Below are positions 2,321-61,457 of a stretch of DNA of 64,000 nt, piece after piece; position 1 is the stretch's first letter, and each line of letters starts with the position of its first letter. The DNA is from Cyanidioschyzon merolae (lineage: Eukaryota). A program made the translations under genes and the position numbers. Location: assembly GCA_000091205.1 (NCBI GenBank), contig AP006487.2; one strand, 5' to 3'. The notes beneath the pieces are model-generated. The model was not told where the DNA came from, did no database searches, and worked only from the letters and a program-made list of their open reading frames with translations.

Positions 2321-3129
2321 ACCGGGACCCAAACAGTACCGAAGAAATCCCGTTTGGGTAAGGTGAGAAAGCGCAAGTCGAGATCATCGGTGACCAAGTC
2401 ATAACCCGAAAATGGTTTTATTACGCGCTACCCGAAGCCTTTACATTCAAAAGTTACAAAGCGTCTCATATATTTCTTTCCTTTTCGGTCCTTGAAGCCT
2501 TCCGGGGGAATCATTCCAAACCATCAAGTATTGTTACAAAATTGTTGTCTCTGTTTCATAGCGAGTTTTTCCATACGCGTTTTCCAGTGATTTCGAAGAC
2601 TACTTTGTCTGCGTTATGCACAGACAAACCTGAGCTGGCCTACTCATAGCGAAACTACAGAATGTGCGGAAGAAAGCCGCCGTCCGGTCGCTCTGCAGCG
2701 AGTCGATGCACTAAGTTCGTCTCTTGTGTACATCGGCCCCAGTGCACATCTCTCTGAGTGGTATATCAAGACATGCCACATCGTTTCGCTCTTGTCAACG
2801 AAAATGAGGATGAGTATGCGTGGCAGAGAATGCGAAAGTGTGCAGTGACACAATCGCTGGGCTAAAGCATGCTGGCAATGAACGTGTTGTAAATCTTCTA
2901 TTTCTGCGAAAAATCATCGACGACATGCAAATCGAAGTTCACCGCGTGCATCGACGACACCGTCGTTGAGGCCGACTTCGAGAGTCACGCCGATACCTGC
3001 ATGCAGAGCGGCTCATCCGAGGAGCGCGTTTCCTCACACATGGAGGCGCGTGATAGTGCTCCAACTGCATCTAGTATGCCATCATTGAGGCTGACGGCGA
3101 CGGCGACGGCGACGGCGACAGCGAGGCTG

Positions 3130-3770
3130 ACATATGCACACGTATCACGTCCGCGTCCGCCAGCGCATCTACCACGTTCAGACGCATATGGTGGCTCCCC
3201 GAGTGCATCGACGACATCATCATCGACGGCGACGGCGAGGCCGACATGTGCACACGAAGCAGCTCATCCGCCACAAGTGCATCATCTAGGCTCAGGCGCA
3301 TGTGGTGGCTCCCCGAGTGCATCGACGACATCATCATCGACGGCGACGGCGAGGCCGACATGTGCACACGAAGCAGCTCATCCGCCACAAGTGCATCATC
3401 TAGGCTCAGGCGCATGTGATGGTTCCCCGAGTGCATCGACGACATCATCATCGACGGCGACGGCGAGGCCGACATGTGCACACGAAGCAGCTCATCCGCC
3501 ACAAGTGCATCGTCTAGGCTCAGGCGCATGTGGTGGCTCCCCGAGTGCATCGACGACATCATCATCGACGGCGACGGCGAGGCCGACATGTGCACACGAA
3601 GCAGCTCATCCGCCACAAGTGCATCGTCTAGGCTCAGGCGCATGTGGTGGCTCCCCGAGTGCATCGACGACATCATCATCGACGGCGACGGCGAGGCCGA
3701 CATGTGCACACGAAGCAGATCATCCGCCACAAGTGCATCGTCAAGGCTCAGACGTGAGCCATATAAACCA
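3130..3770. repeat. Tandem minisatellite, 114-bp unit x ~5 (38 codons per unit), flanked by (GCGACG)n-like simple repeats
   Basis: Unit starts at 3184, 3298, 3412, 3526 and 3640 (gcat[a/g]tggtggctccccgagtgcatcgacgacatcatcatcgacggcgacggcgaggccgacatgtgcacacgaagcagctcatccgccacaagtgcatc..). Both strands give long repeat-driven ORFs (3001..3945 +, 3071..4054 -). Confidence 0.9.
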
Positions 3771-5476
3771 TACGACGAAGAAGTTGTTGTCGTTGTGGTT
3801 GTTGGCGAGGCCGACGGCGACGGTGAAGGCGACGGTGAAGGTACTAAGATCGGATGCAAGACGGTGCGGTCCTGATTTATCCACAACGGCAGAGCAAGCA
3901 CGTTGCAACTGCAGAGAACAGTGCAGATCACGAACACACAGATGATATTCTTTGCAATCGACATTTTGCTGTGCTGTAACTTACGTGCCGTGTGCGCGCC
4001 CTTTGTAAACTCCAACCACTGTAGTATATATGTGCGTTGCACGCAGCCGCTCAATAATTACGCGGCGATCGCGAGGCATGCGTGCTGTCCCTCCCGTACA
4101 GCGAACAGCGCACTACGCCAGGATCCGCCACGTGTGGATCCGGAGGCTCGATGCGCGGGGGAATCCTGGTGAGTGAATCGCGGCGCGGGAGAAATCGCGG
4201 CGGACACGTGGCAGCGCTCTCCTCCACGAATGCAGCTGGCCGTGCAGCAGATGATCCAAGTGATCTTTTAAGTATTTAGACATAATGGTCAGCTTCATCA
4301 CTGTTCCCTGCGAAGGCCCTGCAACAATACGTAGATGGGGAGAACAAGCATATTTGCAGACGAGATCTCGTACGTCGAGTAGTCCCGAAAACTATAAAAG
4401 TCTTCGTATGGAGCATTTATGGCAATTGTAAAGGACCTTTCTGTGAGTGAGTGAGTGGGTTCAGACCTGCGTAACGCAGTACCACCTCTCGGGGAACAGG
4501 TAGGTTGCTTTCCAGTGAGTGGCGCATTGTGATGTAAAAGGCTGGAAGCTTCAGTTAGCGTGCGCGAAACTCAAGAGACTTCAGATCTGATAAAACACGA
4601 CTTTGCAAGGTAAACGACACGTATTTGCGCCTGAGAGAAAAGCCACCCGCATAATCATTGCGCTGAAAAATTGCCGATACACGACATATCTCGGGGGCAC
4701 TGCTCCCGGAACAGCACCTCCTGGAGGCCAAGACCGGTGGATTCTAGGGGCTGAGTCTGTCGAAAGCATTCCATACGAAGATGCGTTAGGCTTTAGATGC
4801 GCTGCGTCCAGGTAAGGCAGCCGCACCGCAACCTAGATGGCGGCAGAGATCGTTAGGATGCCTGGAGCATCCGATTGCAGCTTTGGGAATGCTTGAAGTG
4901 GACACTAGCACATGCGTGCCAGCGGCTAGGCCTCAAGACAGTGATTTGATGTTGCCATATGAAATAGTAATTTCCTATACTTCGAAAGAAAGCCGCTATC
5001 CTGCAAGTTTTACGCCTCATCTTCCACAGAAACGAACGCGTCTCTCCAATGGCTCAGTGAGTTAGTTCTTCTTCGCATTCTTTTAGAGTATAGGTCATTT
5101 TGCACGCCGCTCCGTTCGACAGCATGGAGCAACGTCTTGCGAGGAAGCAGCAACGCTGATTAACAGCCAACGTGACACGCAGGCATCGAGGCCATACCTC
5201 GGTCTCGACCGCCGCTAATGGTTTTTCTGTCGAATGGCTTCTCGTACCTGTATACTGGCCAGTTTCCGACGTTGCAGCACACAACGCCGCGGAACAGACG
5301 TCCGTCAAGGCGACTGATGCATGAATACGAAACAGTTGCTTCGCAATGTTGGGCAATGGCCGCGATGCAAAATCTTCCAGAAACAACTCAGCGGTAGTAA
5401 AGAAAAGGAAGATCCTGCGAGTCATAAGACGAACTGATTCTCTATAACCTCAAGCCTTCGTTTTGGCTGTTCGAAC

Positions 5477-9679: not shown

Positions 9680-9752
9680 CTGGCTTCAGCAAGACCCAAA
9701 TGCCCCTTGCGGAATTCGAAATCCGTGCGCGCATTTGAAGAACAATCAAACG

Positions 9753-42330: not shown

Positions 42331-43044
42331 TTCTACCGAGTGGAGCCAGCCATGCCCTCTACAGAATGCTCTCGGGATTTGTATGCTCTGCCGCCCAGTC
42401 TCGAGAGCTTATACCGGCCTCTGGTAGTCATTCGCAGACCTGAATCCCTACCGACCTTCGTTTCCTGGCAGCGTCGATCATGTATCTTTGATGAACTTGT
42501 CAAAGGCTGCGGCAGGCCGTCAGAATGCCGTAGGATTCCACTCGAGCAAGGTCGAAGGCATTCGCTCGCACGCATGCTTGCGAAGAAGCTGAACAGAGCT
42601 CGCCTTATCCAGACCACGTATACGTTATATCGATCAATACACTACGCGTCTTCCGTGCATATTGGCCATGCATCATGAAGTGTGCGACCATGCCTCTGGA
42701 GATAAAGCGCACAGGTTTGGTGCTCCCGAAGCCTGCCCCAGCAGAGGGCGCCCCCGGCACAGGCGGAGCTTTCTTTGAGCGCTGGGAACACTTGCACGCA
42801 GTAACGCAGCAAGCCTAGTGTTAACCGTGGATTACATCGAATCTGATCACGCAGTCTGTTTGCACTCTGTATCAGCTTTGTTTCTAAGGGAAGCGACGCG
42901 GGCGTCAGCGGCTCGCTACCGCTACGCAAGCGGGTGCCGCTCGTCCGCTTGCATTTCAACGATCCAGCAGCGCTGTGCTTGCGTTTCCGGTGTGGGAGAA
43001 GCTGGTGCAATCCTCTCTAGCAGACTGAGTTCGTCGCCGTTTGG

Positions 43045-44355: not shown

Positions 44356-45132
44356 TGGAAATGCGGTTGCGGAGCTGGCTCTGTCGATGCCCGCTGCTAC
44401 GTGTGTGTGTGAACGCGCGCGCCCAGCCCCCGGACCAGGCAGGCCGTATACGCGTTCGGTGTCCATCGCAAAGTGCACCGGCACCGGCACCGGCGAGTCT
44501 CCCGCAGAGTCCCACAGCGAACGAGCACCAAGCAAGCGTCGCCCCGTACTCTGGTTTGGTCTCAAGTCCATGTGCGGGGCGCTGGTACAACGAGCGCTCT
44601 TCGTTCGAGGGCGCAAATATGCGCTTGCGCGCAGTCGCCTCGACCGTGGTTCGATACTGCCCACGGTGTCTGTTCGCGAGCGCTGCGAATACCCTGAAAG
44701 CGCCTGATACGCGATAGGTGGCGCCATGCGGGCTTCATCGGCGCCGCACAGGCGCTGCGTGCGCGTACCCGAATGGCGAGCGTGCAGGGCGGCAGCGGTA
44801 CGCTGCTGGCGCACGATAATCGCTCAAGGCGCTCCGCTACAGCGCGCGTGCAGTGACGTGTCCTGTGCGTGTCTTTGGTATGCGACACGCATTGGCAGTG
44901 CGCGTGCATGCGCGATGCGTGTCGCTGTCCTCGTTGGTAGAGCTGGTGGAGTCTCCTTTTGGTGTCTGCTGGGGATTTCTCCATTCAAGGGGGTCTTGCA
45001 TTCACTTGGGGCGAATATCGAGTTCATAGCGTCTATGACCCGAACCGGCGCCGCCTAGTGAGCGATGTGATTGCGGAATCGCCATGTGCTGGACGTGCGT
45101 GGTTGCGGCTCGGCGAGCAGCTGGGGGCATCC

Positions 45133-47190
45133 CTAGAACTCTGCAGAGTCCAAGCAGTCGTCCGCGTCAGACGCCATGAAGTCTGTATCGCACGCTGCGT
45201 GTGCGTCCAGGTCATTGACGCGGTGCATCCAACGATCGAGCGCGGTTTGTGCTGGCACGTGGGATTTCGGCGATGAGGTTACTTTTCCTCTGGATTCGCG
45301 GCTTTCAGTATTCTTCGTCTTCGATGCGGCACGGCGGCGCTGTAATTGCTCTAGATAAGCATCGTGTGTGGATGGTTTCCCTTTTTTAGACCAGGCCGCC
45401 TTGGGGAGTCGGCCGGCTCGGGATGGACGAGGCGAATCATCTGAGGCGCTCTGGGGAGCCTCCAGTGCTCGCGGTCTATTTTCGTCCTGCACAAAAATGC
45501 TGTCTCCTGCATAGAGCATGGTTGCCGCATCGGAAACGAGCCGGAGGGCGGCTCGCTGACGTTTGGTGCTCATTTCTCCTCGGCCGCTGCTAGTTTGGCG
45601 CAAAGTTGCCAAAGCTTTCTCGAGCGCAGGTGCGGCGGGTACCGCGTTGGCCGCATCCGATTTAGAAGCACGTTTGCGTGTTGGTTTGGTGGGCATGGGA
45701 TGCATCTCAAAGCGGACTCGTTTCGAGTGCCGCTTGTGGGTGTGCAGTGCCGTCGATGCTGTAGCTGCATCCTTGGATTCAGATTTCAGCTCACCGACTG
45801 TGCTGACGCTCTCCGTGCATGTGGTGTTGATAGATTCTTCTCCAGAGGCGCCCGGCGACAAAGGTTCTGCGGACTTGCGTTGAATCTTTTGCCGTCCGCG
45901 TTGTTCTGTGCCTGTCGTTGTTTCGCTCGCGCTTGGGGCTTGCTCCGCTCCCCTTCTGGGACGACGCTTATTCTGAGAAGCGCCTGAAGTTCGGCTCGCT
46001 GATGGTGAACTGGATGCAGGCATCATCTTGATCTTTCCTGATGCTGGATCTAAACTGCTTTGGAAGTGCTCGCGTGTTGCCGGGGTCATGCGATCATGCA
46101 GTGGCATCATCACAGACGCAGCCGCAGCGTCACCAGAGAATGGATCCTCTGTAGCGCGTTGCCCGCACTGGGAAGCGCTTGCTCTATTCGGGTCCCGCGA
46201 CGACGTTTTCCGCTTGTTGGCGGATGCAGCATGAGCCACTCGATGCGAGGAGGCAACCATGTTCTCGAATTCGCTGCGGGTGCCTTTTTCGCAGCTTTTG
46301 CTGTTGCTCGCTTCCGCGCTGTTTGAACTATCAACGGGTTGTTTGCGCGGACGCCCCCTTTTCCGTCTTGTCGGCGAGCGGAGCGGTAGGGTCGCAACCT
46401 CAGACCCAACTATAGCTGAGGCAGTTTGCAGAGACCCTGTTCGGCTTCTCGTTCCGCTCGCACCCAGGATGAGGTCGGGGTGGTGGAAACGGACGCGAAC
46501 AAGCTGCTCTAACAGTCGCCGCGCTTCGCGAGAGATCGATTGCGGTATCTTGCGCATCTGCTCTGCGGTATTGCTGGCCACGGGCCAGTCCGACGGGTTC
46601 TGCTTCGTGGCTGGGGTCTCGCCGGTGAGCTCCTCATCCACTACGAGCAGTGGGCCGCGCTGGTGCGAACGCGTTCGCGTCGCATGCGGCCTCGCTGCCC
46701 GCCGGCTTTCCAAGTCGACTTGATTCCGTACCTCCCGCCAGGAACGATAGCCTTCGATCAAAATCTCACGCCAGTTTTTCGGAAACGCTGTCCCTTTCCC
46801 ATCATTTACGCTTTGAAAGGCGCGGACGGTCGCAACAGGCCACCCGGCAGTGACCATGTGCGCCGCACGCATCCGGCCGCAGAGACGGTACCGAGAACCA
46901 GACTCGGTCTCGATGACTGTATATTCGCGCCCGTCTGTCTGCACGTCCACTACAGCCGAAGTTTGCCACAGCAACGATGCATCCAGAGGCGGTGCAGGAA
47001 CACCAGCGGCGTTCGATTCCGCCGCCGCTTCCCGCGTGCCCCACACTGTAAAATATGTGTTTTGTTTCTTTGCTGTCGTCGAGACATTCTCTCGATCTTC
47101 ATCTGAAATTCTATCGTCTTCAGCAAGGACAGGCTCAAGGAACCAGTCGTAGATCGGGGGAAACTCCATCACCACACGTCTACCAGGCAA
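45133..47190 (-). CDS. SANTA-domain protein with AT-hook (KNL2/Mis18BP1-like centromere licensing factor candidate)
   Basis: The N-terminal ~120 aa (IYDWFLEPV..TYFTVWGTRE..SLLWQTSAVVDVQTDGREYTVIETESGSRYRLCG..TAFPKNWREIL) fit the SANTA pattern (DW...vGrr...W.TS.I....T..GS.Y.L.G...GFP..W). The AT-hook is RRKRGRPRKQP. A C-terminal RPSRAGRLPKAAW loosely resembles a CENP-C-like motif. Confidence 0.4.
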   Translation of the reverse strand: MPGRRVVMEFPPIYDWFLEPVLAEDDRISDEDRENVSTTAKKQNTYFTVWGTREAAAESNAAGVPAPPLDASLLWQTSAVVDVQTDGREYTVIETESGSRYRLCGRMRAAHMVTAGWPVATVRAFQSVNDGKGTAFPKNWREILIEGYRSWREVRNQVDLESRRAARPHATRTRSHQRGPLLVVDEELTGETPATKQNPSDWPVASNTAEQMRKIPQSISREARRLLEQLVRVRFHHPDLILGASGTRSRTGSLQTASAIVGSEVATLPLRSPTRRKRGRPRKQPVDSSNSAEASNSKSCEKGTRSEFENMVASSHRVAHAASANKRKTSSRDPNRASASQCGQRATEDPFSGDAAAASVMMPLHDRMTPATREHFQSSLDPASGKIKMMPASSSPSASRTSGASQNKRRPRRGAEQAPSASETTTGTEQRGRQKIQRKSAEPLSPGASGEESINTTCTESVSTVGELKSESKDAATASTALHTHKRHSKRVRFEMHPMPTKPTRKRASKSDAANAVPAAPALEKALATLRQTSSGRGEMSTKRQRAALRLVSDAATMLYAGDSIFVQDENRPRALEAPQSASDDSPRPSRAGRLPKAAWSKKGKPSTHDAYLEQLQRRRAASKTKNTESRESRGKVTSSPKSHVPAQTALDRWMHRVNDLDAHAACDTDFMASDADDCLDSAEF

Positions 47191-48522
47191 AGAGAGGCAG
47201 TTGTTACCGCGTGCGCGCGCGCGCGGATGCTTCCACAGCGTCGAAGATAGAGGATTTTTAAATTGACATTGGCCAGCGTTTCCAGAGACTGTGCCCCATT
47301 TTTTTCTTTTCTTTCTCTGTCAGCGCGCAGTGAGGCATCCAACAAACCCCCTACTTCCATATTCCATAACATATACTTCTTCTCGAGTATACAGGTCGTT
47401 TCATACATACAATCGTGATGGTAGTGCCTGCAGAATGAACCCGCCATAGCGCCGGTAGCGCCGGTGCAGATGCATCACCTACATACAGAACGGCTTTTCC
47501 ATACCACTGAGGCCGACGGTAATAGCGGCACAACGCGCTTCGCAGCAGGCACTCATGGTGAGCGCGACATGCACCAGGTCGGTGAAAAAACTACCATCAA
47601 CTCAGAGGAATCACGTACTGGGGATGCGTTGCCTAGGCGCGAAACTACAGGGACCGTTGCCTCTTTCTGGGTCTCTGGTGGCAATGGCGCATCCGTGGGA
47701 GACCTGATCAGACTCATGGGATTCGCGCCATAAAAAATGCATAGATCGAGGCAGATTCCCGCCACGGGGCTTGTCTATTTACCGCACGTATCATCGAAGA
47801 AGCACGTTGCCGACGGACTTATGATAGCGCATCACAAGTCGCGCAAGATTGCTTTTCGGGGCCGTATCGCTACGCTGTCGGGCGTATTCAGCAGATCCCA
47901 CCAGTTCTGGAAGCACGGTCAGTCGTTTGCTGTACCGTACTGCGCCCGGCGAAAAGACGCGCGCGGGTGTACCCGCTTGCCATGCACAACGCGAGATCGA
48001 GATATCTAACCAGAACCAGACGGATGTGCAAAAACAGCGGGACATCGGGCAAAAGTCTTCCACTGTTCCGCGAGAGCTCCCGTCTTTGTCAGCTTTTGTT
48101 TGCAAGTCTCTGGGGGTTCAGCGACCCTGCGAGACCCGAACCTTCTGAAGCCTCCACGTGAAGCCTGGTCCGATACTTGTTGCAATCACGTGCATCATCT
48201 CGACACTCACGATCAATAAGCTCAATAGTCTGCGTCGGGGTCACAGAACTCGTCGACTCTACATAAGAAAACGGAAACGCTGGCATGCAGTCCGTTTCAA
48301 CACTCCCGCGACCGATGCAGCCCCACAGGGCGGCTCGTCTGCAACGTCGCCCGCTCCACTGACGACGAGCTCGACGTCAGCCACTTGAGTTCAGGTGTTG
48401 GTACTTGGTGGCCTCTGCGGCCGTTTATGCCTCAACGGAAGCCAAAAGAAACTTGATGACACTGAGTACAGCTTCTTGAATAGGGGTTTTGCTGTTGACT
48501 GTTTGCCTCGCGTCCGAGCTCG

Positions 48523-49939
48523 ATGCTGTGTTCTCGTGGCACTGCCGTTCAGCGTCTTCGTGGACTAGCGGGACTCTTTCACAGCGTTCGTCCGCTCTCC
48601 AGCACGGGCAGCGCAGTGCAAGACGAGGATGTTTACATTCTTTCTTTCGCAAGAACGCCTATCGGCTCTTTCGGTGGCAAGCTTGCTCACTTGACAGCCG
48701 TTGAACTGGGGGTTATTGCGGTGAACGCTGCACTCGCGCGAGCTGCACGTCTGGAGCCGGACCTGGTCACGGACTGCTACCTGGGGCAGGTGCTTACAGC
48801 TGGCTGTGGCCAGTCGCCTGCACGTCAGGTTGCACTCCGAGCCAACTTGCCGGAAACGGTACGCTGCCTCACAGTCAATAAGGTGTGTGCGAGCGGCATG
48901 AAGGCAATCACTTTAGCGTATGATGCAATCCGGCTGGGACACGCTGAAATCGTTGTTGCCGGTGGCATGGAGAGCATGAGTAATGCACCCTTCTATCTAA
49001 TGGAAAACGAGCAGTTGTTGAGTCGGCGCAAGTATCTCATTCGAGGCCGCCTCGCTCGGGAGCTCGGCAACCGCGTGCTCTACGACGGACTGCTCCTGGA
49101 CGGGCTCCTGGACAGCTACAGCCGGCGGGGTTCGTTGAAAGGCGCATCAACGGCAGTTGGCGCTGAAGAAGACAACGCTGACGCAGGCTATCCCATGAGT
49201 TACTACGCGGATCGTTTGGCGTCGAACATGGGTATTCTGCGTGAAGAGCAGGACAACTTTGCCGTGCATAGCTACTCGCGCGCCGCCAAAGCGACTGCAC
49301 AGCAGCTTTTTGCCAAAGAGATCGTGCCCGTAGAGCTGCCTACCGAGTTTGCGACGCACTCATCCCCGGAACGCTTCTCGGACTCTAGTAGAACTACGTC
49401 TGGGGGCCCGGACACCGAAACCCATGGCACCATTGTGAGTCCCGAGCACCTTGCCCTGCTCAAGAGCGATGAAGAGCTCGAACGACTCGAGCAGATTGAT
49501 CGGATGCCGAGGCTGGCGCCGCTGTTTCCCGGCGCTCGCCCGTCGGGTGCCAAAGGTGGCCCAGAGGGACCCGCTGGCGGCACGATCACTGCAGGAAACG
49601 CTTCTAAGCTAAGCGACGGAGCAGCAGCGCTGGTCTTGGCCTCAGGACGAGCTGTTCGTCGATATAACTTGCTGCCGCTAGCGCGCATGCTTTCGCATGG
49701 TGATGCTGAGCAAGACCCGGAACGCTTTGCCACGACACCGGCGTTGGCGTTACCGCTCGCGCTCTCCAGGGCCGGCCTGAAGCTCTCGAACCTCGACTAC
49801 CTGGAGATCAATGAGGCCTTCGCCTGCGTCCCCATTATGGTACTAAGGTTGCTTGCCGCAACACATGCAGCAGAGGGAGCTTTTCTGGATCCAGTACGAG
49901 CGCGCGCCGCAGCTGCTGTGAGCGCAAGCGCTTCCAGTT

Positions 49940-49977
<38 letters not shown>

Positions 49978-50277
49978 CTTCCTCGTTCGTTGGGATCAGC
50001 AGGTACGGGAACCAGTGCTGGTGGCGTCTCTGCACCAACGGGTCTCAGCTCGAGTGCCGCTCTACCGGATATCATCAGCAGTGAGCACGTCAACGCCTGG
50101 GGTGGTGCGATTGCGCTCGGGCACCCATTGGGCTGCTCTGGAGCGCGCATTGTGGTGACCCTCACGAACATCCTGCGCAGTCGGACGGCTCGGTACGGTG
50201 CTGCAACGATCTGCAACGGCGGCGGTGGCGCGACTGCCCTAGTTCTCGAGCGGGTAGATATGACGAGCGGCGGTTGA
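48523..50277 (+). CDS. ACAT: Acetyl-CoA C-acetyltransferase (thiolase II) with N-terminal presequence and low-complexity insertions
   Basis: The core matches thiolase: ILSFARTPIGSFGGKL, VNKVCASGMKAI, NEAFA and GGAIALGHPLGCSGARIVVTL. An R-rich N-terminal extension suggests organellar targeting. A poly-Ala run is encoded by (GCA)12 at 49941..49976. Confidence 0.9.
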
Positions 50278-50742
50278 AACTGGGCCAAGCATCTGATCAA
50301 GATGGATCCCGCGTCGCCATATGCACATCGCCAGCTTCCCTACGGTGCGTAAATGCCGCCGCTACGCATACGGTGCGAAACCTTACTGGGCGGCTCCTCA
50401 ACCAGCGGAATCTAGCAAATGGATGCAGTCTTTACTTTGGATATTCTGTGGGTGAATTCTCGTTGATTCGCGTCACGCTGACCGGTTCCCTAGGCTATAT
50501 ACCGATGTGGCGATCTGGAACACCGCGTCCTGGCAAGCGCATACCTGAGCCCATGAATCGATAGATGGAGAGCACGCTACGGAGATCTCTTCAGCGGTCG
50601 GTATGGAAAAACGCGCGTTCGTTTCCGGAGCGCCGCTGACGTCCAAGCTGCTGGTATGCAGTTTACCCGCCCAGCTGCCAGAAGCCAGTTGCCACAGGCG
50701 CTGGCGCCACTGGTCGGCATGGCTGCCTCCGGAGTCGCCGCT

Positions 50743-53700
50743 TCACTCGTATTCGGATGCAGCTTGTGGTGTTTCCGTAGACGCAACCTGCGATACCGTT
50801 TCAGGCCAGATCACTTCCAGTATAGGCGCGTAAGTGTGCGCCAAATGCATTCCCAAGTGTTGAATTTGGCTGTGGAAATGCCTGAGCTCCTCATGCCAAG
50901 TGCCAAAAACGCGATACGTCGCAGGGAGCTCCCTGACTTGCCGTGCACTCAACAACTCGGCAAGGCGCCTCTCCAGCAATGTATCTAGCGCATCTGCTTC
51001 TACCTGCGCCGCTCGCAGACGACGGATAATCTCTGTTCTCGCAGCGACGTCGAGGTCCAGCGATACCAGGGTGCATTCGATGGCATCAAGGATGCGTTCG
51101 GCGACGTTCGAAGTATTCAGGCCGTGCCCACTTGCCTTGATGGCAGCGTGCAGCGCGCTCCAAACCTCATCTGGCTGAGCGCCGAGATTTGCTCCTGTGT
51201 ACACGCAGTGGCGCGTACGCAGGAGCATCGCCGCTTTCTCGACAAGACACCTGCCTGCGTTTCGCCATGAGAGGAGACGATCCCGATCCAGGAGGAGCAT
51301 CTCGGGGATTTGCTCGGGGCTCAGCAGGCTCTCCGCCTCGGGGTGTGTAAACGTCCAGATCAGTACACGCTGCAGCGTGAATCCCAGCGTTGTCATCAGA
51401 TCCCGCTGCGTTCGTCGATGCGGGTTCAGCAAAGGTCTAGTGCCCGCGGTAGCCGATTCTGCGTCGATCCTCGGAGCGGGCATCTTGGCGCCTTCTGAAC
51501 CAGACTGGATGCCAGCGGACGCGCCGAAAGTCGCTAACCACTGACGACTTCGGGGCAGGCCCGGGAACTTGTTCATCATGACAGCGTACTCCCGCGCAGG
51601 CCCAAACTGCTGAACCAGCGGTATCATGCGCTCGATCCGAGCGATACGCAAATCTCGTTGACGATCCTCAATGAGATCGAACAGCTCCTCCCAGACATGC
51701 ACGATGGCATCTTCGATCAACGAATGCTGATTGATGCGCTCCTGCAGGGCTTTTGCGACCGCGTGCCGCGTCGGCGGCCGTAGCACCGCCTTCTCCCCGG
51801 TGACTCCAGCGGCACGATCGGCTGCTGGTGCCCATGCTTGCACGAGTGACGCGTCCTTAGCCGGCATCTGGACCAGGAAAAGAACCTGCACGGCAATAAA
51901 GATGATATGCGCGAGCGACTCCAGTGCGACTTGGCGTAGCAGCGTCTGATTCGATGTCGATGTCGTCGAGTTCTCTGCCTCGATGAGCGCTTCCAGGCGT
52001 TGACGCCAATAAGACGGATCCAGTTCTCTGTCGATTACATCATGCATCCGCTCGACCTCGGCAGCGTAGAGCGTACGGCGTTGCCGTTGTGGATCCTCTG
52101 CAGGGAAATCGTCCTCTCGCCGAGCGGATAACGACGATGATTGGGGCGTTTTCGAGGGTGGCGGCGGCGGCAGCAACTGCCGCAAGACCTCCCGCAGATC
52201 GCGCACTGCATCCACGAAGAGGGTTACGTAGGCCTTACAAACAAGCGCCTCGCGAAAACGATCAAAATAAGCTTTGCGTAGCCAGCAGTGGATACGCCTC
52301 GAGAGCGCGCTTGGAATCGGCCAGGCGGCAGCGCATGAACTTTGCACCCGTTCGCGGAAAGATGGCAAGTCCACCAGGATTTCGTGCGCGAGAACAGTGT
52401 TCACGTCGAGACCAGCGGCTGCTACTTGGTTGGTATCGCGCACCAGTCCGGAGACGGCGTCCAGTTCGGCTGTTAGGGCGCCGGGCTCTGTCTCCGGCGC
52501 CGCAGAGACCAACCGAGTTGCCAGCCGCTGGACATAGCGCTCGGCCTGGACACCGCCGACGAGTCTCGTCATTTCATGCAGCCGGTCTTGTAACTGGTTG
52601 ACTTCGCGCTCCCAGTATCCGATCGTCTGGTTTGCCACTGTCGCCGATTGATGTGTTGTCGCGCTCCTGACAGTACCGCGTAGCTTGTCCAATGCGGCGA
52701 GTTCGTGGGCGAGTCCCTCGAGAAGCTGCGCCGCATCCCTGCGTTTCCACGCAATGAAGGCTCGTTTCCAGCATCGCCAGGACTGGACGAATCCAGCAAT
52801 GTTCCGCTCAAACTGGTTGTCAGTACGGGGTTTGGTGGCAGCAGCAGCAGCAAGCTGTGCAAAGCGATCTACCAAATTGCGTGCGAAAGCACACAGATGC
52901 TCCGCTGTTTGGTCGCCCAGCGCATATTCTGGGAACCTGTGCACCAGGAACGAGGCCAGGAACACCCGTCCATCACCTCGGCTGTGAAGCCTGCATTCAG
53001 AGGGTGCTGCCGAGTTTGCCGCATCCATCGCAATCAGTGCACGCTCCTGGGCCTGAATCCAACCTGTGAGCGCTTTCAAAAGCTGATCAGCATGCTGAAT
53101 ACATGCCGGTACCTGTAGATGTTCTCTGGTGGCCTCCTCGAACGATATTCCAGCCCGTAAAGGAAAGCCCGCTCTATGTAGATAGCAACATGCTGCGGCG
53201 GCAATTTCGAGCTCCTGACAAGGCACCGCATGCGTTGCCTGACGAGCTGGAGGCTCTGGCCGTGAGCACGACTCTTCTGCGCTCTCATTCTGGTTTGCAC
53301 TTTCCCTCGATTTTCTTGTTGCGTTCGCCTGCGATCCACGGAGTTCTGGCGAAATCCTCTGCTCCGATATAGGGTAAGCGGACGCGCTTTCCAAATACGT
53401 CGCGGAAGCTGAATCCGGGTGAGGAGACGCTCGCTCGGCAAGCTCTTTGGACGATGTATCAGTTTGCACGGCATCGTCCGTTTCTGGGTAACGACCCTGA
53501 CCGCGACACTGAGACGGGCTACCATCGCCGGGTACTATCGCCAGGCGGCGGTGCAGCGCTCTCGACGCGTTACGCACCCTTCTGGCGTTACGGACTCGCT
53601 CTCGCTCCCGCTTCACGGCCGCTGCCTCCATGGCACGCTCTTTGGCTAACCATTGATGTCGATAACGTTCTGCGAGCGCTGTGCGAGCTTCAGCTGCCTT

Positions 53701-54369
53701 GAGCAGCACTCTTTTCCAATGTTGGCGAACTCGCTCTTGTCTATACCGTTGTTTCTCCTCTCGGCGGCGGGCTGCAGCCTCAAGCTCTGCCTGAAGTGCA
53801 TCAAGAGAAACTCTGCCTTCGAAAGAGTGGCTTGCTGAGAGCCATAACTGACGCCGCCGTTGCGCACTGCCGCTCCGTGGCGACTCGGTCACGAAGCAAC
53901 GACGTCGCTTGTCAGCTGAGGCCGGCCGCTTCTCGGCCTTTTCGGGAGATTCAACGAGACGAGGCAATAGAAGGCAACGACGCTGCGGATGAGCGTCGTT
54001 CCCGAGCCTGTCGTTGGTGTTGCGCCCAACGCCTTCGCCTGGGCTAGAAACGCCGCTGCTCCAGGGTTCACTAGCGCGCCCGGGAGTAGTGCATGGCGAG
54101 CACCAGGAAACCTGAGAGTCTGCTGCCTCTTTCGCAAGCGATGATTCACTTCCGTATTTCTCCTTTCGATCCAAACACCATTCGATAATCCATTCGTTGC
54201 TCTGTGTGTCCATGCTTCGAGAACTCCCGTTCCGTTCCAGGCGATAATGCTCACGAATGAACAACCGATGCGGTAGCGATTCGCGGTGTCTCCCATTGGC
54301 CTGCGCAACGGCCGTGTGACAGCCGCCATTGCCAAGCGCCCGTGACAGAATAGGCCGCAATCCCGCCAC
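50743..54369 (-). CDS. Large hypothetical protein (1208 aa) with basic coiled-coil segment
   Basis: Long ORF with a charged heptad-like stretch EEKQRYRQERVRQHWKRVLLKAAEARTALAERYRHQWLAKERAMEAAAVKRERERVRNARRVRNA. No domain is confidently recognised. Confidence 0.4.
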   Translation of the reverse strand: MAGLRPILSRALGNGGCHTAVAQANGRHRESLPHRLFIREHYRLERNGSSRSMDTQSNEWIIEWCLDRKEKYGSESSLAKEAADSQVSWCSPCTTPGRASEPWSSGVSSPGEGVGRNTNDRLGNDAHPQRRCLLLPRLVESPEKAEKRPASADKRRRCFVTESPRSGSAQRRRQLWLSASHSFEGRVSLDALQAELEAAARRREEKQRYRQERVRQHWKRVLLKAAEARTALAERYRHQWLAKERAMEAAAVKRERERVRNARRVRNASRALHRRLAIVPGDGSPSQCRGQGRYPETDDAVQTDTSSKELAERASPHPDSASATYLESASAYPISEQRISPELRGSQANATRKSRESANQNESAEESCSRPEPPARQATHAVPCQELEIAAAACCYLHRAGFPLRAGISFEEATREHLQVPACIQHADQLLKALTGWIQAQERALIAMDAANSAAPSECRLHSRGDGRVFLASFLVHRFPEYALGDQTAEHLCAFARNLVDRFAQLAAAAATKPRTDNQFERNIAGFVQSWRCWKRAFIAWKRRDAAQLLEGLAHELAALDKLRGTVRSATTHQSATVANQTIGYWEREVNQLQDRLHEMTRLVGGVQAERYVQRLATRLVSAAPETEPGALTAELDAVSGLVRDTNQVAAAGLDVNTVLAHEILVDLPSFRERVQSSCAAAWPIPSALSRRIHCWLRKAYFDRFREALVCKAYVTLFVDAVRDLREVLRQLLPPPPPSKTPQSSSLSARREDDFPAEDPQRQRRTLYAAEVERMHDVIDRELDPSYWRQRLEALIEAENSTTSTSNQTLLRQVALESLAHIIFIAVQVLFLVQMPAKDASLVQAWAPAADRAAGVTGEKAVLRPPTRHAVAKALQERINQHSLIEDAIVHVWEELFDLIEDRQRDLRIARIERMIPLVQQFGPAREYAVMMNKFPGLPRSRQWLATFGASAGIQSGSEGAKMPAPRIDAESATAGTRPLLNPHRRTQRDLMTTLGFTLQRVLIWTFTHPEAESLLSPEQIPEMLLLDRDRLLSWRNAGRCLVEKAAMLLRTRHCVYTGANLGAQPDEVWSALHAAIKASGHGLNTSNVAERILDAIECTLVSLDLDVAARTEIIRRLRAAQVEADALDTLLERRLAELLSARQVRELPATYRVFGTWHEELRHFHSQIQHLGMHLAHTYAPILEVIWPETVSQVASTETPQAASEYE

Positions 54370-54523
54370 AGCAGGCGCCGGCCGTCAACGGCAATCTGCA
54401 GCGATGCATGTCGCTCTGTTTGTGACCGTGACATCATGGATGATGCCTGCCCGCCCCCGACCCGCTCCTCCGAGACCTCGATCCGATTGCCACGTCGCCT
54501 CGGCGATCGGAACATCCCAGCAA

Positions 54524-56140
54524 CAACATCGAAAACTATCGCCGGTTAATATCGAGCACTTTATGAAGCGCACCTTTTGGACGTTGTACGCGCAGTAGCC
54601 TCACATTTACTAGCACATGCGCTTGGAAACTGATTGAATCGATACCCGGGTTTTCGATGGATGCAAATGAGGAGCCGGTGGCGGTATCGCTCGAGTTGGT
54701 AGCGACTTCGGCAGAGATGTCGCTACGAGGGCGAGCGGCACTCCAGATGGTCCAAGCTCATCGTGATATGCTGGACCTCGAACCGGACGGGCGCCATATC
54801 CAAAGGATGGTTGAAACGAGATGCCTGCCTTCATTGCATCTTTCGCTACTTTATGTTCCTGAACAGGGCTCTCCAGAGAAAAACCTGCTTGCCTCCTTGT
54901 ATCCGTGCATCCAGGCCCCTGAGAAAAACCCATTCAATGCGGCACCGGTATGCCGGATTACGGCGCAGGCAACCATCGTAGATATTTGTGTTATGTACTG
55001 CATCGTGTCTGGAGTGAGCTACGGCTGGTCTCTGCGAGCAGGCATGGGACATGCGAGCATCATCTCGAAGAGCATTGGCGGAGCTCGCTCGACGATACGC
55101 ATCCGCTGGTAGAAAGTATAGAAGAGTCAATAGGGACGACAGAGAACGACAGAGTATCAAACCGCATGCAATTCGTGCAATCTAAGCCCAAGTCGAGCAG
55201 AAGGACTCATTTTCAATCGTTCAAGATAGATGATATGAAAGGATTTGTGATGGGTATCGATCCGGGGTCGACAAGAATATCGCGATGGTCGCCATGCCTC
55301 TGTATGATGAGAACGGCATCAGATTTCTGAAAGGCAAGCAGATGACACTGCTCATTTTGTGCAGGGCGTAATATCTTCGCGAGTCATAACGAACAGACGA
55401 AAGAAGCCATACCAACAAATGGAATGATAGCGTCAGAACTGCTTTTGTACGCGCTGAGGAATGTGATGAGCAGAGAAGCATGCTTCGTGCGTCTCAGATA
55501 GAGAGTACACAGATGCGTAACTGGCTCCCGCAGGCATCTTTAGCTGGAGTCCATGAGATGGCGCTGAAATCGCAAACGATTCCTGTTGTACAAGCGCAAG
55601 AAGCACGCATTCTCTAGGTCCTTCAGTGAGTTGGAACAGCGAGTGAAAGACAATGCGCGTCATTCGGTAATAGAGTATGAAGTTGGACATTCCAGCATGC
55701 GCACTGGCTGCACATCTATTCAATCGACAAGAGCGTTCACCAAGAGCAGAAACCTATGCGGGACGATTCCCACTGGAGGCGTTCAGGACAACGCGCATGC
55801 GCATCATGAGTACGACTGCACACTGAAACAGATCGAGAAGAAAAGCGTGGAACAGAGCGCGATACACAATATCATGCAAGGCGAGCTGATGAAATGCCAG
55901 ACACCGAGACATCCTCAGGTGAGAGGCGTACTATTGTGTGATGCCACCAGCGATCATCCATACGAGTACTTTCTGCATCGAGACTTGAATGCCTCAATCA
56001 ACAATCGGGAATGTGTGTGTTGCTGCCAGAGCGTCTATCAACTTTGTTTCCTGCATATTTTCCACGAAATTGATTCGTGCTCGGTGTAGACATTTCGATG
56101 AAACGTTGGAGTCTTCCGAGGCAAGACAAAAACTGTGACA
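54524..56140 (+). mobile_element. TnpB/Fanzor-like element, copy 2: conserved 355-bp leader plus inactivated RuvC gene
   Basis: The leader 54524..54878 is about 96% identical to 19564..19916. ORF 54950..55330 carries RuvC-I FKIDDMKGFVMGIDPGSTRISRW (Fanzor-type GIDPG). ORF 55586..56089 carries ..LEQRVKDNARHSVIEYEV..SSMRTGCTS.. followed by RuvC-III HPYEYFLHRDLNASINNRE. In-frame stops separate the pieces. Confidence 0.55.
54950..56089 (+). pseudogene. Inactivated TnpB/Fanzor-like RuvC nuclease gene (copy 2)
   Basis: RuvC-I and RuvC-III segments are in the same frame but interrupted by stops at 55328 and 55343. No clean RuvC-II could be read. About 75% identical by eye at nucleotide level to copy 1 over the homologous part. 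Confidence 0.5.
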
Positions 56141-56497
56141 AGCAGAGCGGGAATCGGATGCTCGCATGCAGCTACACACCCGTAAGGTACGGTGCAGCAA
56201 CCCAAAAAGGCTGGATCACTGCACCTTTATACCGGAAACGATTTTCCATGGATATTCCTAGACGAAGGTTAGCGTTCCATTATTCGATACGACTGAGCAA
56301 ACGTGCTTGTGGTGATGCCGCACTCGCCCGTGTCGCGCTCCAGCAGCAGGAAACGAATCCCCGCCGCCCGGTGAAAAATCGCAGCAGACGCTGCGGCAAC
56401 GTTCGCCGCCCGTGCTCTAGAACAGAACGAATTACCACGATTTCAAACTAAAGAGAAGTTTGAGGTGTATCCTTTATAGAGACGTACTTGCCGTGTC

Positions 56498-57235
56498 ATG
56501 TTTCCTGCTCCAGGTTCTAGCGCGGGGGGTCAGTCAATGGAGGCGTCCCTTGACGAGGCAGGACTTCCGCGCAAGACTGTGCTAGCCTGCGTTCAGGCCG
56601 TTCTCCAAGAGGGCGGCCTGTCGTCAAGCGCTGAACAGCAGCCTCACAGCGCGCCTTCCGTGAGCTCAAGCCCGTCGCGAGTAGAACATGCGATGGTAAC
56701 AGAGGGGCGACCGCGTGATGCGATAACCGTACAGAACGGCGCTCGTGAGCACGTCAAGCGAGAAGCCTCCACAGAGGAAACGCAACTGGGCGCCACGTCT
56801 CCTGCGACGCTGCAACTCACAGAGGAAACAGCGTGCTCCAACATGGACGCTGAGTGCTCGAAGGACGAGAGTTCACCCCAGAATGGTCCAGAGCCAGCCC
56901 TAACGCTACACCCGGACGCACGTGACCTCATCTGCGCCTGTGCGAACACGTTCGTTCGGTCAATTGCAGTTGAGGCGAATAAGGCAAAGGCCAGAGACCA
57001 GAAACGGACAATCTTCTCGAAACATATCCTAGCCGCCTTGGAGCAGATGGGCCTTGAAGCTTACGTCCCAGTATTGCAGCCACTGCTGGAACGTGTGGAG
57101 GATGAGCAGGTGGAACGCCAACGGCGAAAAACTGGTCGTGCTCGCTTTGAACACACAGGTTTGAGCATAGAGGAGCTCAAAAGACAACAAGCGGAACTAC
57201 TAGCTGCTGCTCGAGAGCAAGCTCTGTGGCCTTGA
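56498..57235 (+). CDS. Histone-fold protein of the NC2-beta (Dr1) / NF-YB / Dpb4 family with a long low-complexity loop insertion
   Basis: The helix alpha1 region is LPRKTVLACVQAVL. Helices alpha2-alpha3 ARDLICACANTFVRSIAVEANKAKARDQKRTIFSKHILAALEQMGLEAYVPVL match SEAN.I...EKRKTI..EHV..AL..LGF..Y. A charged C-terminal tail follows. Confidence 0.45.
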   Translation: MFPAPGSSAGGQSMEASLDEAGLPRKTVLACVQAVLQEGGLSSSAEQQPHSAPSVSSSPSRVEHAMVTEGRPRDAITVQNGAREHVKREASTEETQLGATSPATLQLTEETACSNMDAECSKDESSPQNGPEPALTLHPDARDLICACANTFVRSIAVEANKAKARDQKRTIFSKHILAALEQMGLEAYVPVLQPLLERVEDEQVERQRRKTGRARFEHTGLSIEELKRQQAELLAAAREQALWP

Positions 57236-60620: not shown

Positions 60621-60679
60621 TCAGGTACCGCTGCGACGGTCTCGAAGCGACGTGCTCTAGAGAAAGCCCTGCAGGAGCC

Positions 60680-61250
60680 ACACGACTCGAAAAAAGAGCA
60701 AGTCGTTACGATGAAGCGTTACCTGCGTAACGACTAGAAACAGCTGCTTCTGAGCGACACGACTCGAATAAAGGGCTAGTCGTTACGATGAAGCGTTACC
60801 TGCGTAACGACTAGAAACAGCTGCTTCTGAGCGACACGACTCGAATAAAGGGCTAGTCGTTACGATGAAGCGTTACCTGCGTAACGACTAGAAACAGCTG
60901 CTTCTGAGCGACACGACTCGAATAAAGAGCAAGTCGTTACGATGAAGCGTTACCTGCGTAACGACTAGAAACAGCTGCTTCTGAGCGACACGACTCGAAT
61001 AAAGGGCTAGTCGTTACGATGAAGCGTTACCTGTGTAACGACTAGAAACAGCTGCTTCTGAGCGACACGACTCGAATAAAGGGCTAGTCGTTACGATGAA
61101 GCGTTACCTGTGTAACGACTAGAAACAGCTGCTTCTGAGCGACACGACTCGAATAAAGGGCTAGTCGTTACGATGAAGCGTTACCTGCGTAACGACTAGA
61201 AACAGCTGCTTCTGAGCGACACGACTCGAATAAAGGGCTAGTCGTTACGA
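60680..61250. repeat. Tandem array, 77-bp unit x ~7.4, each unit containing a perfect 12-bp inverted repeat (ctagtcgttacg ..15 nt.. cgtaacgactag)
   Basis: Unit starts at 60680, 60758, 60835, 60912, 60989, 61066, 61143 and 61220. The units are nearly identical; the first is slightly diverged (aaaaagagcaagtcg). Confidence 0.9.
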
Positions 61251-61457
61251 AGAATCGCCTCCCAAAAGGAGCTTCCCCGGGAACGCTTTACCGTGTAAGG
61301 CTTCGAACGGCTGAGAACGAGCCCAGGCGATACGCGTTACCGCCACCACTTGCATGTGTGCTCCGCGTGGCATCTCCAGTCGATGCTTCTGCACTGCTGT
61401 TCCAAAGTCGTTACACATGACGGTTTTTTCTGGGGGTACTTGTTGCCTTCCTAACAT

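Follow-up and report, generated by a model that had tools for sequence, protein, structure and literature searches.

Relation to Known Fanzor1 Elements

The TnpB proteins of IS200/IS605 and IS607 elements are the family from which the Fanzor proteins descend (PMC3627910, PMC10432273). In Cyanidioschyzon merolae, the CMe-1A family of Fanzor1 elements comprises approximately 150 copies, with a 3169-bp consensus that encodes the 734-residue protein CMe-1 (Bao & Jurka 2013, Mob DNA 4:12, PMC3627910); its members share approximately 80% identity with that consensus, and just this one Fanzor1 family is given for C. merolae in the 2013 paper (PMC3627910). The motifs of CMe-1 follow the order FVVGADPG, KQRAFANFF, VVAYGAG, VDEFRTS, HHELGCTLQ, and NRDFNAAINI, and the glutamate of (V/I)DE(F/Y)xT(S/T) is taken here as catalytic after Bao & Jurka 2013 (PMC3627910). 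Fanzor1, the eukaryotic and transposon-borne homologue of the RNA-guided RuvC endonuclease TnpB, differs from the latter by a large N-terminal helical extension and by GxDPG instead of GIDLG, and the red-algal Fanzor1 lineage is without the canonical CxxC...CxxC zinc ribbon.

The window analyzed in this study is a stretch of 64,000 nucleotides of C. merolae DNA, in which a first-pass annotation had recognized, from the letters of the sequence, a decayed Fanzor/TnpB-like copy at 54524-56140 and a paralogue of it. Three proteins encoded in the window agree exactly with the C. merolae 10D entries BAM79296.1, BAM79299.1, and BAM79301.1. Both copies are confirmed. The first (copy 2) extends over 54466..56296; the paralogue (copy 1) was located at about 19.5-21.3 kb and, with its upstream remnants, occupies 19072..21321. 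The two copies lie on the plus strand, i.e., in direct orientation, with 35 kb between them.

The window copies reside in the same genome as CMe-1A, agree with it in protein architecture and in the order of the motifs, and are collinear with almost the entire 734-residue CMe-1 protein; as in CMe-1A, terminal inverted repeats are not evident. However, both window copies are dead, and their protein identity to CMe-1 is approximately 28-30%, as compared with 32-34% to two intact environmental relatives, P0075 (702 residues) and P0076. At the nucleotide level (blastn), similarity to the CMe-1A consensus amounts to 57-64% over 130-450 nt, at 20591-20718 and 55587-56015, and thus falls short of the approximately 80% identity that defines the CMe-1A repeat family. 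Since the window copies are far from CMe-1A and somewhat closer to P0075 and P0076, they represent an older or separate lineage that is related to, but apart from, CMe-1A. Further CMe-1A fragments are present in the window at 14322-15120, 27435-27784, 41947-42297, and 47335-47519.

Fanzor1 nucleases characterized by both structure and biochemistry are SpuFz1 (PDB accession numbers 8GKH and 9CEU-9CEZ), GtFz1 (9CER), and PpFz (9CF0/9CF1). Their catalytic logic is that of a RuvC-I aspartate, a glutamate, and a RuvC-III aspartate (D383, E541, and D606 in SpuFz1); the two aspartates and the GxDPG and RDxNAxxN motifs are shared with the window copies, and the glutamate may be, although the sequence identity is 13-15% and the window copies are pseudogenes. 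TnpB and Cas12f-like proteins have the same split RuvC domain and a similar C-terminal RD-NA--NI motif, but no significant direct sequence match links TnpB to the window copies or to their intact relatives. Neither an omegaRNA nor inverted repeats were identified at the window copies, and Rfam gave no match there.

Evidence for Fanzor1 Homology

When CMe-1 was compared with the whole window by tblastn, copy 2 was found with an E-value of 2.3e-16 and copy 1 with E-values of 3.3e-15 and 4.8e-9. P0075 matches more strongly than CMe-1 does, at an E-value of 2.5e-40 in copy 1 and of 2e-26 in copy 2; for P0075 and P0076 taken together, the values are 2.5e-40 (copy 1) and 1.1e-35 (copy 2). Profile A3, built from five intact relatives from red algae, matches six collinear fragments in copy 1 and four in copy 2, the best of which lies at 55568-56086 (E-value of 3.5e-28). 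A green-algal Fanzor1 profile detects CMe-1 at an E-value of 1e-22 and has no significant match when it is compared directly with the window copies (E-values of 0.19 and 12).

Comparison with the TnpB-like fold (WED/REC/RuvC/NUC) of solved Fanzor1 structures was made on P0075, not on the pseudogenes. The AlphaFold (AF2) model of P0075 has a pLDDT of 65 and a pTM of 0.49 and is poor in the C-terminal 110 residues. In a Foldseek search of the PDB, the top seven matches of this model are Fanzor1 chains (SpuFz, GtFz, and PpFz; E-values of 1.6e-11 to 3.8e-8), all with a probability of 1.00, and these are its sole significant matches; Cas12j, Cas12i, and Cas12f come next and are not significant. The best matches thus belong to Fanzor1 and not to an unrelated family, as the first-pass annotation anticipated.

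The HMMER comparison that it had suggested with TnpB and Cas12 families (Pfam, NCBIfam, and PDB sequences) was unproductive, even for intact members. The frame-stitched copies gave noise only in Pfam and NCBIfam scans (DUF460 at an E-value of 0.1 at the GIDPG stretch, Colipase-like, and DUF5919), without any match to OrfB_IS605, Cas12f1-like_TNB, or the NCBIfam transposase models, and no match to PDB sequences by phmmer, and an alignment of the two copies found nothing at E ≤ 0.01 in a word-indexed collection of 5.8 billion proteins. The intact relatives and their profile likewise have nothing significant in Pfam or among PDB sequences; the only Pfam signal of the relatives is Cas12f1-like_TNB, located at the C-terminal RD-NA--NI motif, at E-values of 0.23-0.52 (11-12 bits, where the curated cut-off is 26.3). 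Because intact members of the family also fail these tests, the negative results for the copies are uninformative. As direct HMMER matches are absent, the link to TnpB and Cas12 rests on the Fanzor1 intermediates, the structure comparison, and the literature, and the window copies are assigned to Fanzor1 through transitive homology via the red-algal Fanzor1 proteins. Elsewhere in the window, an exact-protein look-up of the 584-residue ORF at 48523..50277 returned no record.

Extent, Reading Frames, and Motifs of Copy 2

As delimited by frameshift-aware alignment and tblastn, copy 2 is a Fanzor1 pseudogene that is decayed and 5'-truncated but keeps a 3' terminal remnant. It spans CMe-1 residues ~157-726 and P0075 residues 163-702, so that roughly the first 155 codons are missing. 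In a frameshift-aware protein-to-DNA alignment with P0075 (54472-56106), 191 of 564 positions are identical, with 12 frameshifts and 6 stops; the corresponding alignment with CMe-1 covers 54473 to ~56160. Similarity to copy 1 stops at approximately 56296, which is taken as the 3' limit.

The reading frames, motifs, and stop codons that the first-pass annotation had listed for copy 2 are all present where it placed them. The ORF at 54950..55330 (126 residues) includes FQSFKIDDMKGFVMGIDPGSTRISRW, and the ORF at 55586..56089 (167 residues) includes LEQRVKDNARHSVIEYEV, SSMRTGCTS, and HRDLNASINNRE; TGA stops are at 55328-55330 and 55343-55345. Its assignment of GIDPG to RuvC-I and of HRDLNAS to RuvC-III also holds, since both align with the motifs of CMe-1 and P0075. 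The RuvC-I motif GIDPG (55253..55267, plus strand) has GADPG as its aligned counterpart in CMe-1 and GNDPG in P0075; the catalytic aspartate is kept, and a frameshift follows directly after it. The RuvC-III motif HRDLNASINN (55976..56005, plus strand) aligns with NRDFNAAINI of CMe-1 and P0075, again with the aspartate kept. Between them, VIEYEVG (55667..55687, plus strand) corresponds in the alignments with CMe-1 and P0075 to the VVAYGAG/VIAYGAG strand of Fanzor1; the stretch VIEYEV..SSMRTGCTS had previously been likened to PSSKTCSSCG of TnpB, a comparison that these alignments displace. LEAFRTT (55773..55793, plus strand), within IPLEAFRTT, aligns as a degenerate form of the Fanzor1 VDEFRT(S/T) motif and is the equivalent of DE-x-x-TS in copy 2; it is read in a different frame, and alanine takes the position of the putative RuvC glutamate. 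The proposed reconstruction from the two copies yields a collinear order of RuvC-I, RuvC-II, and RuvC-III.

Near the 3' limit, a conserved terminal block, GTTCCATTATTCGATA (56274..56289, plus strand), is common to copy 1 (21299-21314). Two intact elements, L011 and L012, also carry it in their 3' flanks in the form GTT(C/T)CATTATTC, and the block GTTCCATTATTC is common to the window copies and these two elements. It is a candidate for a remnant of the right end or of the omegaRNA region; the consensus fold of the four 3' ends is weak (-3.2 kcal/mol).

Copy 1 and Comparison of the Pair

Copy 1 is a decayed Fanzor1 pseudogene of nearly full length that corresponds to CMe-1 residues 16-697. Frameshift-aware alignment gives 197 of 709 identical positions, 11 frameshifts, and 9 stops with CMe-1 and 215 of 671 identical positions, 8 frameshifts, and 9 stops with P0075. 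The counterpart of the RuvC-I motif is SVDQG (20286-20300, plus strand), which aligns with GADPG and GNDPG; the putative RuvC glutamate motif is INEFWTK (20801-20821, plus strand), in which the glutamate is kept and the preceding aspartate is replaced by asparagine; and the RuvC-III motif, as judged from the alignment, is HRDLNASTKI (21002-21031, plus strand).

Outside a short tract described below, the two copies are 53-62% identical in nucleotides and approximately 32% identical in amino acids. Depending on the reference protein, each contains 8-12 frameshifts and 5-9 in-frame stops, which are spread along its whole length. The two are old paralogues that have both decayed neutrally, and neither copy is capable of nuclease production. 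Since neither retains an intact ORF, they are pseudogene, not functional, members of Fanzor1.

High-Identity Tract

The segment that had been described as a conserved leader preceding the ORF is a tract of 357 nt at 54522..54878 (plus strand) in copy 2, with a 95.5% identical counterpart at 19561..19916 (plus strand) in copy 1. Identity changes sharply at the edges, from 62% in the adjoining shoulder to 95.5% within the tract and then to 53% in the body, and 184 nt (54647-54830) are free of mismatches. In both copies, the upstream remnant, the tract, and the downstream remnant follow each other in Fanzor1 order with no extra sequence, and the tract is collinear with residues ~175-300 of CMe-1 and P0075, in the N-terminal helical region. 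Its frameshift-aware alignment scores are 101 (copy 2) and 76 (copy 1), as compared with 29 ± 4 (maximum of 46) for shuffled sequences, and profile A3 matches at 54703-54978 with an E-value of 1.2e-6. One stop and three frameshifts in the tract are common to both copies. We also considered the tract as the in-frame N-terminal exon of one long ORF and rejected this, as three reading frames are needed to follow Fanzor1.

By its alignment, the tract is an internal piece of the Fanzor1 ORF that encodes part of the helical N-terminal half, rather than a leader. The ORF had been expected to begin behind the leader; instead, copy 1 keeps remnants from CMe-1 residue 16 onward (19072), upstream of the tract. 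The proposed size of about 1.2 kb and 400 residues is likewise too small, since the ancestral ORF, to judge from CMe-1 (734 residues) and P0075 (702 residues), was approximately 700 codons long.

Between strains, no other segment varies as much as the tract. When the orthologous copy of another strain (L009) is compared with the window, divergence per 100 nt is 4.2 in the tract, as against 2.9 for the remainder of the pseudogene, 1.0 for flanking intergenic DNA, and 0.7 for a neighboring gene, i.e., the tract is without between-strain constraint. The tract peptide is changed at 6 of 69 residues in L009 and also in L010, a metagenome contig on which the upstream flank of copy 2 is joined to the body of copy 1, with the junction exactly inside the tract. 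In L009, copy 1-type and copy 2-type bases form a mosaic; we do not regard this as proof of repeated conversion, because substitutions specific to the reference-strain lineage explain the mosaic equally well.

Scans with Rfam found nothing on the whole window at gathering thresholds and nothing on 54300-56500 at E ≤ 1, and folding of the tract is not distinguishable from that of shuffled sequences (z-scores of -0.66 on the plus strand and -1.85, mildly low, on the minus strand). Among the 5.8 billion proteins, the tract peptide is represented by only two clusters, one of which (P0079) is located on the contig of the chimeric locus L010. A metagenome scan for the tract yielded at least 600 candidate stretches, at least 6 of which were confirmed; further copies of the tract were found neither within the window nor among the metagenome matches listed, which puts its copy number at two or more.

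Origin of the High-Identity Tract

It is highly probable that the region is a non-functional Fanzor1 relic in which the near-identity of the tract arose from ectopic gene conversion between two pseudogenes. The host of the relic is the nuclear genome of C. merolae 10D, where an active Fanzor1 would once have carried out omegaRNA-guided DNA cleavage. Two old paralogues would then have decayed neutrally, gathering frameshifts and stops, until a relatively recent ectopic (non-allelic) conversion, in one or a few events, homogenized the 357-nt tract. In all probability, one copy recently received the tract from the other, and gene conversion is what we infer, from the pattern, to be the homogenizing mechanism: near-identity is short and sharply bounded within older, diverged paralogues, the copies share a chromosome and an orientation, and tract variability between strains is raised. 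On the other hand, a flank identity of 53-62% is low for homology-driven conversion, which suggests that the conversion may be older than some of the divergence in the flanks or may have involved a third copy; such a donor may lie elsewhere in the genome, as this view is based on a pair of copies and a small number of strain variants.

Selection for an acquired function of the tract, such as a guide-RNA-like leader noncoding RNA, a regulatory element, or an ORF of 69-83 residues, could also account for 95.5% identity beside flanks of 53-62% and for 184 nt without a mismatch; ORFs of 83 residues (19653..19904) and 151 residues (54657..55112) begin in the tract, which also contains a perfect 8-bp hairpin (GTAGCGAC...GTCGCTAC) and has the minus-strand fold z-score of -1.85. 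This is nevertheless unlikely, given that the tract diverges between strains by 4.2 per 100 nt, as against 0.7-1.0 in the flanks, that 6 of its 69 peptide residues are altered in L009 and L010, that the ORF of copy 1 and that of copy 2 have different ends, that Rfam (E ≤ 1) and the plus-strand fold (z-score of -0.66) give no signal, and that copies 1 and 2 have no comparable neighboring gene in common. The data do not support selection for a role as leader, omegaRNA, or peptide. We consider it quite unlikely that the tract is actively maintained, either as an RNA or regulatory module domesticated from the REC-coding region of Fanzor1 or as a recombination substrate that duplicates or excises the 35-kb interval; the L010 junction is the one expected if the interval were duplicated or excised by recombination in the tract. 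Independent insertion of a younger mobile sequence into two Fanzor remnants, e.g., a non-autonomous element like TE-N2_CMe, has precedent in that the 5' 635 bp of CMe-1A are 95% identical to this separate element of about 70 copies (Bao & Jurka, PMC3627910), and several more repeats, 350-1400 bp long and 92-98% identical, are dispersed in the window. It is very unlikely here, however, as the tract of each copy is in register along Fanzor1 with no extra sequence, shows no similarity by blastn to the CMe-1A consensus, the 5' 635 bp included, and occurs at only two loci in the window, the metagenome matches listed, and the protein collection.

Two further readings concern the relic as a whole. 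C. merolae has very few introns, and taking the stops and frameshifts as introns, programmed frameshifting, or sequencing error in a copy that still functions would have to accommodate 8-12 frameshifts and 5-9 stops distributed over the full length of each copy, 32% amino acid identity at approximately 55-62% nucleotide identity, as expected of neutral decay, and a degenerate glutamate-bearing motif in copy 2. Sequencing error is excluded by independent metagenome contigs that carry the same sequences at 98-99% identity. The RuvC-I and RuvC-III aspartates are kept in both copies, and intact proteins are still encoded by a portion of the CMe-1A copies (Bao & Jurka, PMC3627910), but this reading is so improbable as to be effectively refuted. 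The idea that the motif matches are due to chance in a region unrelated to Fanzor/TnpB draws on the failure of the stitched copies to match a TnpB family in Pfam, NCBIfam, or PDB sequences or anything among the 5.8 billion proteins; it is refuted by E-values down to 2.5e-40 (tblastn) and 3.5e-28 (profile) against bona fide Fanzor1 relatives, whose own link to solved Fanzor1 structures is significant and whose intact members fail the Pfam and PDB tests too.

Implications

Beyond annotation, the importance of the locus is small, since Fanzor1 of C. merolae has been known since 2013 and both copies are dead; they are an ordinary, divergent transposon relic. The description as a leader with a TnpB-like ORF of 400 residues is corrected to that of an ordinary Fanzor1 gene of approximately 700 codons. 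Scans of Pfam, NCBIfam, and PDB sequences miss the older Fanzor1 lineage entirely, so that negative profile results do not equal absence. The pair offers a clean, small case in which pseudogenes of a very compact eukaryotic genome have probably undergone ectopic gene conversion. In addition to CMe-1A, C. merolae is shown to have one or more older Fanzor1 lineages, intact relatives of which (P0075 and P0076) persist in environmental sequence data.

Identification of the two copies as Fanzor1 relics

The window has a eukaryotic look, being composed of long intronless ORFs with ORF-free spacers between them (GC content, 0.49 to 0.60), and three of its proteins are identical to Cyanidioschyzon merolae 10D BAM79296.1, BAM79299.1, and BAM79301.1. 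Several JGI and ENA metagenomes hold contigs that are 98 to 99.5% identical to the window, which independently confirm both loci studied here with some strain variation. Besides copy 2 (~54466-56296), a paralogous copy 1 is present on the same strand at ~19.1-21.3 kb, as proposed in the first-pass annotation. The two share a tract of 357 nt (54522-54878 in copy 2 and 19561-19916 in copy 1) with 95.5% identity by blastn, which reported three later stretches as only weakly similar; in a global alignment, the rest of the copies is 53 to 62% identical, and similarity is gone past ~56296/21321.

ORF 54950..55330 of copy 2 with FQSFKIDDMKGFVMGIDPGSTRISRW, ORF 55586..56089 with LEQRVKDNARHSVIEYEV, SSMRTGCTS, and HRDLNASINNRE, and the TGA stops at 55328 and 55343 are all present as annotated. 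Copy 2 has GIDPG (55253-55267) as its RuvC-I motif and HRDLNASINN as its RuvC-III motif; the corresponding motifs of copy 1 are SVDQG and HRDLNASTKI. The glutamate motif, which is VDEFRT(S/T) in Fanzor1, reads INEFWTK in copy 1 and LEAFRTT in copy 2, where it is in a different frame from the annotated ORF and has Ala at the glutamate position. The sequence VIEYEVG, taken earlier for a post-RuvC-II block, pairs with VVAYGAG of Fanzor1 and not with the start of the TnpB zinc ribbon (...TSxxC...).

The frame-stitched pseudo-proteins of both copies matched nothing meaningful in Pfam, NCBIfam, or the PDB sequences, or among 5.8 billion proteins in a word-indexed search, and these negatives alone would have spoken against the family assignment. 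A Fanzor1 family, CMe-1A, was described in the C. merolae genome by Bao and Jurka in 2013 (PMC3627910); it has ~150 copies roughly 80% identical to a 3169-bp consensus, is without TIRs, encodes the 734-aa protein CMe-1, and has its 5' 635 bp in common with the non-autonomous element TE-N2_CMe. With CMe-1 (Additional file 3 of that paper) as the query against the whole window, tblastn matched copy 2 at 55244-56020 (residues 426-684, E 2.3e-16) and copy 1 in two segments (residues 540-697, E 3.3e-15; residues 291-480, E 4.8e-9). Weaker collinear matches lie upstream, among them residues 246-288 inside the copy 2 tract (54763-54891) and residues 69-124 ahead of the copy 1 tract (19238-19411).

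A metagenome search with CMe-1 yielded 43 relatives, including the intact proteins P0075 (702 aa) and P0076 (698 aa), which are just 42 to 43% identical to CMe-1. No known relative is closer to the window copies than these two (copy 1, tblastn E 2.5e-40; copy 2, 1.1e-35). With A3, a profile of five intact red-algal relatives, six collinear reading-frame fragments were detected in copy 1 and four in copy 2, with E values down to 3.5e-28, and a green-algal Fanzor1 profile built from proteins of the 2013 paper matches CMe-1 (E 1e-22). An AlphaFold2 model of P0075 was built from a 26-sequence alignment (mean pLDDT 65; N-terminal helical domain good, RuvC moderate, C-terminus poor). In a Foldseek search of the PDB, this model significantly matched seven Fanzor1 chains and nothing else (E 1.6e-11 to 3.8e-8, probability 1.00): Spizellomyces SpuFz (9CEZ, 9CEU, 9CEY, and 8GKH), Guillardia GtFz (9CER), and Parasitella PpFz (9CF0 and 9CF1). 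Cas12j, Cas12i, and Cas12f rank next with nonsignificant E values. The intact relatives also have no significant match in Pfam (top, Cas12f1-like_TNB, E 0.23 to 0.52) or to a PDB sequence, and therefore the negatives for the window copies are uninformative. The Fanzor family call was thus correct, on the basis of the CMe-1, P0075/P0076, and A3 matches and the resemblance of the P0075 model to Fanzor1 structures; the membership of the copies themselves is one of transitive homology over overlapping regions. Many CMe-1-like proteins (P0036-P0074) bear the precomputed Pfam label PF26935.1, which was not reported in a Pfam search of P0036 and CMe-1.

Extent and decay of the genes

In frameshift-aware protein-to-DNA alignments, residues 16-697 of CMe-1 are collinear with 19072-21090 of copy 1 (197/709 identical, 11 frameshifts, 9 stops) and residues 157-726 with 54473 to ~56160 of copy 2 (178/601 identical, 12 frameshifts, 5 stops). 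With P0075 as the reference, copy 1 has 8 frameshifts and 9 stops at 32% identity, and copy 2 has 12 frameshifts and 6 stops at 34%. These collinear alignments and the A3 fragments indicate an ancestral gene of ~700 codons, in place of the ~1.2-kb ORF of ~400 aa outlined earlier. Copy 1 spans nearly all of this gene, and copy 2 is cut short at its 5' end, near residue 157, where it adjoins the start of a divergently oriented 1208-aa ORF (50743..54369). Decay, previously noted for copy 2, is thorough in both; they are relics without function. Between the copies, amino acid identity is 32% at ~55 to 62% nucleotide identity, as would be expected of neutral drift.

The similarity between the copies runs ~200 nt beyond the annotated ORF and ends just past GTTCCAT(T/C)ATTCGATA (56274-56289 in copy 2 and 21299-21314 in copy 1). 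The block also follows the intact genes at two metagenome loci (L011 and L012), in the form GTT(C/T)CATTATTC, and the four-sequence consensus fold of the 3' ends is weak (-3.2 kcal/mol). The block is a plausible candidate for a remnant of the right end or of the omegaRNA region.

Origin of the high-identity tract

The tract, regarded in the first-pass annotation as a leader, aligns with residues ~175-300 of CMe-1 and P0075: VNIEHFMKRTFWTLY pairs with MNLERF(M/T)KRA(V/I)(F/Y)AL(Y/F), and HRDMLDL...GWLKRDACLHCIFRYFMFLNRALQRK pairs with HRRVLGL...GWLKSKRYLPLILRYFVFLNNTIERE. It keeps register with the flanking remnants and passes through three reading frames and one stop in both copies. Against CMe-1 residues 140-300 it scores 101 (copy 2) and 76 (copy 1), compared with 29 +/- 4 (maximum, 46) for 60 shuffles and 30 to 38 for the reverse complement, and A3 matches 54703-54978 (E 1.2e-6). 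Rather than a leader, the tract is thus an interior segment of the dead ORF. Since it is collinear with the Fanzor1 protein, its independent insertion is excluded.

There is no support for selection acting on the tract: in a comparison with L009, a diverged strain's ortholog of the copy 1 locus, the tract has 4.2 differences per 100 nt, against 2.9 for the remaining pseudogene, 1.0 for the intergenic DNA around it, and 0.7 for the gene next to it, and 6 of 69 residues of the tract-encoded peptide are changed. The tract has no Rfam match at E<=1, and its folding z-scores are -0.66 (plus strand) and -1.85 (minus strand). No further copies were found in the window or among the metagenome loci listed, all six of which belong to these two loci; the tract peptide occurs in just two clusters of called proteins, one of them on the contig behind the metagenome locus L010. 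Identity steps sharply from 62% to 95.5% in the tract and then to 53%, a 184-nt core is without mismatch, and the frameshifts of the tract are common to both copies. Together these features fit ectopic gene conversion between the two pseudogenes, which have the same orientation and are 35 kb from each other. The overall reading, in which both copies are Fanzor1 relics and the tract is a piece of their ORF, is very likely, and conversion specifically, as suggested by the identity pattern, is probable.

Over 19137-23282, the pseudogene diverges from L009 three to six times as much as adjacent intergenic DNA and genes; either constraint acts on the intergenic DNA of this compact genome as well, or exchange or mutation is faster in the repeat copies. 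In L010 (Ga0080006_1116134, 1-17100), DNA from upstream of copy 2 in the window (44654-54878, 99.2%) is fused to the copy 1 body with its downstream region (19561-26800, 98.6%), and the crossover is inside the tract. Its SNP patterns match different strains on the two sides, resembling the metagenome locus L006 on the left and L009 on the right, and thus L010 is most likely a chimera produced by assembly across the repeat; the junction is nevertheless the one that unequal crossing-over or circular excision would create.

Related repeats and relationship to CMe-1A

Three more C-terminal CMe-1 remnants were found by tblastn at 14539-14793, 27436-27762 (residues 612-721, 48% identity, E 2.5e-25), and 41834-42295 (E 2e-25). 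The CMe-1A DNA consensus also recovers these, along with 5'-end fragments at 14870-15120(-) and 47335-47519. The latter, a solo fragment (75%), is inside the 5' 635 bp common to TE-N2_CMe (PMC3627910); the former is the inverted 5' end (15120-14870, 71%) of a cluster at 14322-15120, which also has a 3' end (14556-14787, 72%) and a start-of-ORF region (14322-14429). The remnants at 27436-27762 and 41834-42295 are each carried by a copy of a dispersed 1372-bp repeat (26448-27818 and 40961-42331, 98.4% identical), an older relative of which lies at 13326-14281 (~70%). The window is rich overall in young-looking repeat pairs, with dispersed intergenic pairs at 6310-6910/11959-12559 (601 bp, 98.5%) and 16946-17626/28062-28740 (684 bp, 91.7%). 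Tandem arrays lie at 60675-61257 (period ~77 nt, 95 to 98% identity), 3110-3754 inside ORF 3001..3945 (~114 nt, 87 to 95%), and 29975-30294 (~82 nt, 86 to 92%). At L012 (Ga0102680_101607), a 137-aa ORF (871-1284) with a match to DDE_3 of Pfam (Tc1/mariner-type transposase) is followed just downstream by the intact P0076 gene (1520-3616), a pairing that echoes the Fanzor1-Mariner associations of Bao and Jurka (PMC3627910).

The CMe-1A DNA consensus has no match to the tract and is just 57 to 64% identical to copies 1 and 2 over short stretches, whereas identity of roughly 80% defines the family; the two copies thus represent a separate, divergent lineage not listed in the 2013 paper (PMC3627910), although Fanzor1 in C. 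merolae has already been published.
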